Source: Escherichia coli (lineage in GTDB: Bacteria; Pseudomonadota; Gammaproteobacteria; Enterobacterales; Enterobacteriaceae). Taken from it: DNA of 3,892 bases. Location: assembly GCF_003334815.1 (NCBI RefSeq), contig NZ_QOWO01000079.1; one strand, 5' to 3'. The notes below the pieces were generated by a model. That model saw only the letters and a program-made list of their open reading frames with translations. It did not search any database and was not told the origin of the DNA. Of this stretch, positions 1,570 to 2,220 are shown piece after piece. Both the position numbers and the translations under genes were made by a program. Position 1 is the first letter of the stretch. Each line of letters begins with the position of its first letter.

Positions 1570-2220
1570 ATGAATGCACGAAAGGCGGTACTGGCAGATA
1601 ATCCGGAATTGATCCTGCGTGTGCTACAACTGAGATTTGACGAGTCACTGTCGTACCCGCGCATTTCTGCGCAGACTGGTGTCAGCAAAACCGCCATTTT
1701 TTCTCTGGTGAGGCGATTTCACCAGGTATTCACTGACTGGCCTCTTTCCGGTGAATATTCCTGCGGGCAACTGGCCCGGGCTCTTTTCCCGGGGCGATAT
1801 CCTTCAACCCCGACCGTGACTCAGCCTGTGAAAGCAGAGAAACCCCGCCGGAACCGATTTTCACCGGAGTTTAAATGGAGACTTGTTCAGCAGACTCTTT
1901 TACCCGGTGCCTGTGTCGCACAAATAGCTCGTGAGAACGGAATCAACGATAACCTGCTCTTTAACTGGCGGCATCTCTGGCGTAACGGCGGCCTGCAGCC
2001 GCCCGGCGAACATGAAACATCGCTACTTCCCGTGACGTTAACTCCGGAGCCGGATAATAAAATCCCGGCACCAGTGCAGATACCTGAACAGATAAATACA
2101 CTGCCAGACAGTCTGTGCTGTGAGCTGGTTCTGCCGGCCGGAACTCTCAGGCTGAAAGGTGAACTGACGCCGGCGTTATTACAGACACTTATCCGCGAAA
2201 TGAAAGGGAGCAGCCACTGA
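1570..2220 (+). CDS. tnpA: IS66-family accessory protein TnpA (OrfA), 216 aa including an N-terminal extension
   Basis: The C-terminal half (KPRRNRFSPEFKWRLVQQTLLPGACVAQIARENGINDNLLFNWRHLW) is the canonical IS66 OrfA helix-turn-helix region. AAGGA lies 8 nt before the ATG. The stop overlaps the tnpB start (TGATG). Confidence 0.8.
   Translation: MNARKAVLADNPELILRVLQLRFDESLSYPRISAQTGVSKTAIFSLVRRFHQVFTDWPLSGEYSCGQLARALFPGRYPSTPTVTQPVKAEKPRRNRFSPEFKWRLVQQTLLPGACVAQIARENGINDNLLFNWRHLWRNGGLQPPGEHETSLLPVTLTPEPDNKIPAPVQIPEQINTLPDSLCCELVLPAGTLRLKGELTPALLQTLIREMKGSSH

Follow-up and report, generated by a model that had tools for sequence, protein, structure and literature searches.

The IS66-family accessory protein TnpA is described by three NCBIfam models: NF038385.1 for a long form (190 positions), NF047595.1 for a short form (113 positions), and NF047593.1 for a shorter one still (79 positions). 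Here we analyze a long-form tnpA gene in a 3,892-nucleotide (nt) fragment of an IncI1-type plasmid from Escherichia coli (contig NZ_QOWO01000079.1; hereafter, the window, meaning the whole stretch analyzed), where it lies within an IS66-family insertion sequence (IS). The closest described relatives are the long-form TnpAs of the IS679/ISCro1 group (NF038385.1), from which nothing essential differs: the tnpA-tnpB-tnpC order, the GTAAGCG-type ends, and the overlap of the tnpA stop with the tnpB start are the same. Among long-form TnpAs the window protein has an outlying N-terminal domain (N-domain), 25–41% identical to the others, whereas its C-terminal two-thirds are 80–92% identical to ISCro1-type TnpAs. 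Short-form TnpAs (NF047595.1 IS66_ISRel24_TnpA; for example, in the element L017) have the same HTH_Tnp_1 core and C-terminal motif, with a near-identical tnpB next to them, but are without the 92 N-terminal residues.

Two further systems bear comparison. The models of IS3 OrfA and IS2 OrfA weakly match residues 93–150 of the window TnpA, and the IS3-family OrfA and the IS2 repressor TnpA are likewise small DNA-binding proteins (here by sequence) encoded by the first gene of the element. IS3 OrfA, however, combines a single helix-turn-helix (HTH) with a leucine zipper and is joined to OrfB through frameshifting, whereas the window TnpA carries an additional N-terminal HTH of an unrelated kind and forms no frameshift fusion. 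IS21-family IstA, in its ISEc12-like subgroup, has the same three-helix HTH, WPL(P/S) motif, and helix over about 68 aligned residues at 30–42% identity, likewise at the extreme N-terminus and with a second HTH next. Unlike IstA, TnpA has no DDE catalytic domain, beta-barrel, or IstB partner, and for its second HTH it has one of the HTH_Tnp_1 type in place of HTH-2. In the cryo-electron microscopy structure of IstA, a linker in the minor groove connects HTH-1 (residues 1–39) with HTH-2 (residues 55–104); of the two sub-sites in each terminal repeat, CS2 is contacted sequence-specifically by HTH-1 and CS1 is contacted by HTH-2 (PMC10122671). That solved protein, from IS5376, belongs to another subgroup, outside the reach of N-domain sequence profiles.

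The N-terminal domain of TnpA and its relatives

The gene and the parts of its product are as follows.

1570–2220, plus strand: tnpA, long-form IS66-like accessory protein TnpA, 216 amino acids (aa), intact (open-reading-frame list and NF038385.1)
1603–1794, plus strand: N-terminal extension domain, residues 12–75, IstA HTH-1-like
1795–1845, plus strand: variable linker, residues 76–92, holding an internal GTG (1816–1818)
1846–2019, plus strand: canonical OrfA core, HTH_Tnp_1, residues 93–150
2110–2217, plus strand: conserved C-terminal motif, residues 181–216 (CCEL.LP.GTLRL.G.LTP.LLQ.LIREMKG)

The predicted product of the full frame (24 kDa, N-terminal peptide MNARKAVLADNPE...) matches NF038385.1 at 283.8 bits, against a curated cutoff of 150 bits, with residues 12–198 on model positions 2–190. 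An identical RefSeq protein, WP_024244070.1, is annotated by PGAP as 'IS66-like element accessory protein TnpA' in a 100% identical plasmid record. Judged by these matches, the protein is a full-length member of the long-form TnpA family. The original prediction had the canonical OrfA region beginning near residue 90, behind an extension reaching to position 1830, and this is approximately correct. The Pfam HTH_Tnp_1 match (PF01527, E 4.7e-14) is confined to residues 93–150 and the short-form model aligns to residues 93–210, so that about 92 residues precede the canonical core; the extension itself divides into the domain at 1603–1794 and a linker running to 1845. The suggestion that it is specific to a subgroup is borne out by the separate NCBIfam models for long and short forms and by L017, which has no such domain. 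The extension as such is already known, being included in the curated family: residues 1–90 alone, for which a separate profile search had been proposed, match NF038385.1 positions 2–81 at 91 bits (E 5e-26).

An AlphaFold2 model built with a 46-sequence alignment (mean predicted local distance difference test score, pLDDT, 73.5) places helices at residues 12–23, 29–36, and 40–53, giving the three-helix form of the second HTH-like segment noticed earlier, followed by a WPL motif (57–59) and a fourth helix (65–72). The pLDDT is above 90 over residues 11–55, and ten-residue blocks over residues 11–50 average above that value. The linker varies in both length and sequence in the alignment, holds most of the non-synonymous differences from L011, and is predicted to be disordered at residues 84–90 (pLDDT <50). 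The core is modeled as a confident three-helix bundle (helices 99–109, 116–122, and 127–138), the proline-rich residues 150–180 are predicted to be disordered, and the C-terminal motif is predicted to form a beta-hairpin (strands 183–188 and 191–196) and a helix (201–212) at a pLDDT of about 70.

Several observations bear on whether the extension is coding. A profile search with TnpA returned 365 homologous clusters; among the best 120, from which lengths, coverage, and genera were taken, nearly all are 200–230 aa long with 92–95% query coverage, and the genera include Escherichia, Salmonella, Klebsiella, Serratia, Pantoea, Erwinia, Yersinia, Photorhabdus, Xenorhabdus, Edwardsiella, and Enterobacter. 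In the 46-sequence alignment the N-domains are 25–40% identical to that of the window, and L21, F23, R49, F50, W57, P58, and L72 are invariant. The ratio of non-synonymous to synonymous substitution rates (dN/dS) over codons 1–90 is 0.21 and 0.07 for two intact close copies. In four divergent intact elements the proportion of synonymous differences (pS) is saturated at 0.64–0.86, with a non-synonymous proportion (pN) of 0.21–0.47. From these patterns, the N-domain is under purifying selection and conserved across the long-form TnpAs of Enterobacterales. In the window, L002 (E. coli), L013 (Serratia), L014 (Salmonella), and L016 (Pantoea), the start codon and the GTAA[GC]CG end are 83–88 nt apart, which leaves no space for a long non-coding leader. 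The good ribosome-binding site remarked on previously is the Shine-Dalgarno sequence AAAGGA (1556–1561), spaced 8 nt from the ATG; the GTG inside the frame (1816–1818), by comparison, falls in the most variable, lowest-confidence linker, with no purine-rich Shine-Dalgarno sequence ahead. The continuous frame with an N-terminal extension thus stands as a conserved and selected 216-aa open reading frame (ORF), and by this sequence evidence translation covers the entire frame, beginning with the ATG at 1570.

A phmmer search of residues 1–92 against 1.84 billion representatives found 50 proteins in total. Besides IS66 TnpAs and a few repeat proteins, these were N-terminal IstA fragments, at library-wide E-values of 4e-5 to 9e-4. 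The distant matches start MRKIKEVLRLKFEA.LSHERIAAATG.SKGAV...GLGWPLP and match the IS21 transposase model NF033546 (transpos_IS21) from profile position 1 and well beyond the shared segment; their first ~70 residues also match NF038385 positions 5–73 (E 1e-13 to 1e-17). The full-length IstA of ISEc12 (513 aa, with istB downstream) scores 310 bits to NF033546, and its residues 11–78 match NF038385 positions 5–71 (E 5.5e-7). Aligned by hhalign, six IS66 N-domains and eight IstA N-termini gave 99.6% probability over 68 columns at 41% identity, spanning the HTH, the WPL motif, and the fourth helix, with an E-value (4e-24) that is inflated because the IstA sequences were chosen for their likeness to the query. 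A tblastn search of plasmids with an IstA N-terminus retrieved 2230 records of istA genes, with an annotated IS66 tnpA in the tail. Residue 107 of ISEc12 IstA aligns to residue 85 of IS5376 IstA, so the shared segment corresponds by position to HTH-1 plus linker. These profile matches and alignments establish homology between the N-domain and the HTH-1-plus-linker segment at the N-terminus of IstA in one IS21-family subgroup.

Other comparisons reached less far. Searched by sequence in the PDB, as a single sequence or a six-sequence profile, the N-domain found no IstA and only generic HTH regulators (best SorC, E 0.0016, and DeoR, E 0.0034; all others E >0.01). BLASTP of the window TnpA against ISEc12 IstA was not significant (E 2.6), though the alignment was in register, and TnpA had no match at E ≤0.1 to the IstA model NF033546.1 (cutoff 160). 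A neighbor-joining tree of N-domains put the window type nearer IstA than the ISCro1 type; with about 70 columns and no support values it is not relied on. By identity the window-type domain is about equally far from other IS66 N-domains (25–41%) and from IstA (28–42%). The literature searched contained no statement on the N-domain, the IstA link, or exchange of tnpA cassettes; ISfinder/TnPedia, InterPro, Han et al. 2001 (on IS679), and Gourbeyre et al. 2010 lay outside that search, and neither the IstA link nor cassette exchange is claimed as new.

Proposed function and exchange of the tnpA cassette

The explanation we consider best overall, and probable, is that the protein is a long-form TnpA with an IstA-like N-terminal HTH, serving as a bipartite sequence-specific DNA binder. 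The mechanism is drawn by analogy from IstA, whose tandem HTH-1 and HTH-2 read two sub-sites per terminal repeat; Tc3 and Mos1, like IstA, are bipartite DNA readers. Long-form TnpA would be a tandem-HTH accessory subunit reading its element's own DNA, at the left end, the leader, or the terminal repeats, and because of the extra HTH its footprint would be longer than that of short-form TnpA, or different from it. We infer from this analogy the bipartite binding to its own element, and likewise the DNA binding, its target, and any effect on transposition or on tnpA expression. All three ORFs of IS679 were reportedly found by Han et al. to be needed for transposition. No DNA target for the N-domain was found; the inverted repeats of long- and short-form elements have the same GTAAGCG...ACCGT blocks.

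How the N-domain is distributed over related elements narrows these roles. We compared an intact window-type copy (L007 2865–5568), an ISCro1-type element on the O104:H4 pAA plasmid (L002 2073–4786), and a short-form element from E. coli MS 200-1 (L017 994–2536). The first two align as follows.

IS positions ~636 to the right end (2704), L007 and L002: 93–98% identity
IS positions 396–635, L007 and L002: ~80% identity
IS positions 1–395 (left end, leader, N-domain), L007 and L002: unalignable

In the proteins, the window N-domain is 27% identical to those of P0129 and P0131, and the remainder of TnpA 89–92%. L017 is 92–100% identical from the first tnpB base onward; its frame opens 74 nt after the IS end and gives a TnpA of no more than 145 aa, which attains the short-form model's cutoff and matches the long-form model at positions 84–188 only, the N-domain being absent. 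Three tnpA modules in E. coli (window/IS679-type, ISCro1-type, and short form) are found on tnpB-tnpC segments that are 92–100% identical, with left ends that cannot be aligned. The window-type N-domain is restricted to a small lineage comprising the window, P0149, and P0166. In these comparisons the left end and tnpA together act like a cassette that can be exchanged over a common tnpB-tnpC backbone, the N-domain being one of its variable features.

Two unusual N-domain proteins were also seen: P0099 (197 aa), an ISCro1-type TnpA with two tandem copies of the N-domain (~70 residues), and P0090 (442 aa), in which TnpA residues 1–114 are fused to 330 aa of unrelated sequence. Each probably arose by rearrangement or in assembly.

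Some of these results, and some already given, weigh against bipartite end recognition as we propose it. Nearly identical tnpB, tnpC, and right ends coexist with N-domains that are 27% identical or absent; the right inverted repeat being the same despite different N-domains, the N-domain is not tunable to it, and its absence from one near-identical backbone makes it dispensable for the shared TnpB/TnpC machinery. The window copy is itself defective in tnpB and tnpC. To these are added the inflated hhalign E-value and the failure of N-domain sequence profiles to reach the one solved IstA (IS5376, PDB 8B4H). Within these constraints of the cassette, the N-domain more likely acts at the left end or leader inherited with it, either in recognizing the end or in regulating tnpA. 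A more far-reaching version, that an end-recognition domain of the IstA HTH-1 type was captured by an IS66 lineage and now circulates in an exchangeable cassette of left end plus tnpA among IS66 elements with a single tnpB-tnpC backbone in common, we put forward only tentatively, and with more doubt than belief.

Leader palindrome and alternative explanations

One alternative makes the extension a generic regulator HTH (sigma-70 region 4, YlxM, or SorC-like) with no specific link to IstA, acting as a tnpA autorepressor on a palindrome in the leader.

1537–1565, plus strand: leader palindrome AATGTCC-N15-GGACATT directly upstream of the tnpA start, arms 1537–1543 and 1559–1565, read from sequence

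We regard this explanation as unlikely, though it has something to build on. In Pfam the extension finds weak generic HTH matches only (Sigma70_r4, YlxM, HTH_23), with nothing significant to HTH_Tnp_1 (residues 12–50, E 10); the sigma-70 region 4 matches (PF04545 / PF08281) have E-values of 0.002–0.036, and 7 of the 34 aligned N-domains reach E ≤0.001. This similarity is that of a common small-HTH fold class, not of family membership. IstA N-termini score far better than the sigma and regulator families (E 1e-13 to 1e-17 against 1e-3 to 1e-5), and the resemblance to IstA does not stop at the HTH but takes in the WPL motif and fourth helix as well.

The palindrome can be read in more than one way. 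A sequence of the form (A/G)TGTCCA-N8-15-TGGACA(C/T) precedes the start in all long-form elements examined, amid unalignable flanks: those of the window and L002 (at about 2138–2165), and those of L013, L014, and L016, within 40 nt before the tnpA start. The same palindrome accompanies N-domains only 27% identical. The short-form L017 has a different, perfect 9-bp palindrome (GGTGCCCAC...GTGGGCACC) at the same place, so that the presence of a palindrome does not depend on the N-domain. The long-form palindrome is a candidate operator; it could equally be an RNA hairpin covering the Shine-Dalgarno sequence, which its 3′ arm overlaps, and such a hairpin requires no protein. As RNA, the window hairpin has a predicted energy of −7.6 kcal/mol (z −0.08, not unusual) and that of L002 −10.9 kcal/mol (z −1.9). 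The autorepressor part of this alternative is compatible with the bipartite DNA binder that we prefer.

The same leader holds an 11-codon upstream ORF (MSISAVKGHLR; window 1538–1573), which starts in the 5′ arm of the palindrome and whose TGA overlaps the tnpA ATG (ATGA). The corresponding ATG of ISCro1-type elements lies in the tnpA frame and gives many database entries an 'MSIIFNGHYR' prefix (225 compared with 214 aa).

A further alternative, very improbable, is that a once separate upstream gene was recently fused to tnpA to give the extension; relatives should then carry an N-domain ORF ahead of a short tnpA. Database searches do return N-domain-only proteins of about 100 aa, one of which, P0106 (96 aa), sits just inside an IS66-type end. 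Yet the short matches are nearly all partial, contig-end, or pseudogene fragments or truncated IstA, all intact elements retrieved have one continuous frame of 209–217 aa, and any fusion is old enough to be common to many Enterobacterales genera. P0106 was the sole candidate for a stand-alone N-domain gene, and it was rejected because an IS3-type OrfA follows it, with no IS66 core. A protein word search with the N-part alone gave mostly fragments and was uninformative on full-length architecture. The earlier idea of a fused upstream ORF accordingly holds as an evolutionary domain fusion, and not as a separate present-day gene, none being present among the elements found. As for P0106 itself, it occurs at L003 3952–4587, where an IS66-type left end (GTAAGCGCTCC...) is followed by the 96-aa ORF, 20 nt, and the IS3-type OrfA (MGTPRFTPEFKEEAVRQ...). 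P0106 lies in an IS-rich contig end, and the same arrangement was seen in three metagenome samples; it is probably a remnant, less probably a chimeric element.

Least probable of all, and effectively refuted by the comparisons above, is that the upstream 85–90 codons are an untranslated leader open by chance and that TnpA begins internally, for example at GTG 1816–1818: the canonical Pfam and short-form matches do begin only at residue 93, short-form IS66 elements occur in E. coli, and a scan of 1380–1900 found no sigma-70 consensus promoter, but the N-part fits a curated protein profile (E 5e-26), retains invariant hydrophobic-core residues at 25–40% amino-acid identity, combines saturated synonymous sites with little non-synonymous change, and has a confidently predicted fold, the ATG and not the GTG has a well-spaced Shine-Dalgarno sequence, five divergent elements have the frame open up to about 85 nt from their ends, and no homologue examined supports an internal start with non-coding sequence upstream.

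The host element and its surroundings

The remaining features of the window are these.

1485–1506, plus strand: left terminal inverted repeat of the IS66-family element (GTAAGCGCATCATTTAAACCGT)
2220–2567, plus strand: tnpB, IS66 family accessory TnpB (NF033819.0, E 1.2e-37)
2588–3755, plus strand: tnpC, IS66 DDE transposase, defective (both ORF pieces match NF033517.1)
135–662, minus strand: trbA, truncated by the left IS1203/IS629 copy
951–1106: Hok/Gef gene
1178–1429, minus strand: hypothetical gene, 83 aa

The element starts at G1485 with GTAAGCGCATCATTTAAACCGT, a GTAAGCG-type end, and extends to the right-hand IS1203. The left boundary is empirical: element-free plasmids match window 1400–1484 only, and copies elsewhere start at 1484/1485. 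The tnpA gene is the first of a tnpA-tnpB-tnpC operon, and tnpB follows directly, its start overlapping the tnpA stop (TGATG) at 2220. A complete copy of the same insertion, L001 (plasmid NZ_CP024481.1), is 2703 bp long with a 1-nt deletion of its own and a right end at 6788 (...CCGCTTAC; reverse complement GTAAGCGGCTCACCAGAACCGT); the 8 bp flanking it differ between the two sides (AGTTTTTT and GCTGAAAT), so that no target duplication is visible there, and in the window the right end is missing. The intact copy L007 is 2704 bp, the length of IS679 as well. In sister copies PGAP assigns the transposase to the 'ISCro1 family' or the 'IS679 family', and the element belongs to the IS679/ISCro1 group of the IS66 family.

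Three lesions leave the window copy unable to transpose by itself. Relative to L001 and L007, tnpB has one extra G at 2548, a 3′ frameshift with which the ORF continues to 2729. A 17-nt deletion after 3272 shifts the frame of tnpC, which is cut at 3755 by IS1203 and thus encodes no intact DDE transposase here; the gene is intact in the sister copies L007 and L012. The final ~430 nt of the element, including the right inverted repeat, are replaced by IS1203.

The window is bounded on both sides by inverted 137-nt termini of IS1203/IS629, an IS3-family element (1–137 and 3756–3892; TGAACCGCCCCGGG...), and so has the look of a repeat-bounded contig. The start codon of the 83-aa gene, beside the Hok/Gef locus, has the IS66-family element 55 nt upstream of it (window 1429–1485), an insertion that may separate the gene from its promoter.

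For annotation nothing changes, as the 216-aa frame is the correct gene model and a curated family for it already exists. The homology to IstA HTH-1 gives the TnpA of IS66 a testable hypothesis, bipartite recognition, together with a solved structural analogue for modeling, and the three tnpA modules on a shared backbone form a natural domain-swap series in which to ask what TnpA and its N-domain do. If the tentative reading of a captured, circulating domain is true, TnpA would be an interchangeable DNA-specificity or regulatory subunit of IS66 transposition, and the transfer of a domain between the IS21 and IS66 families would have shaped it.
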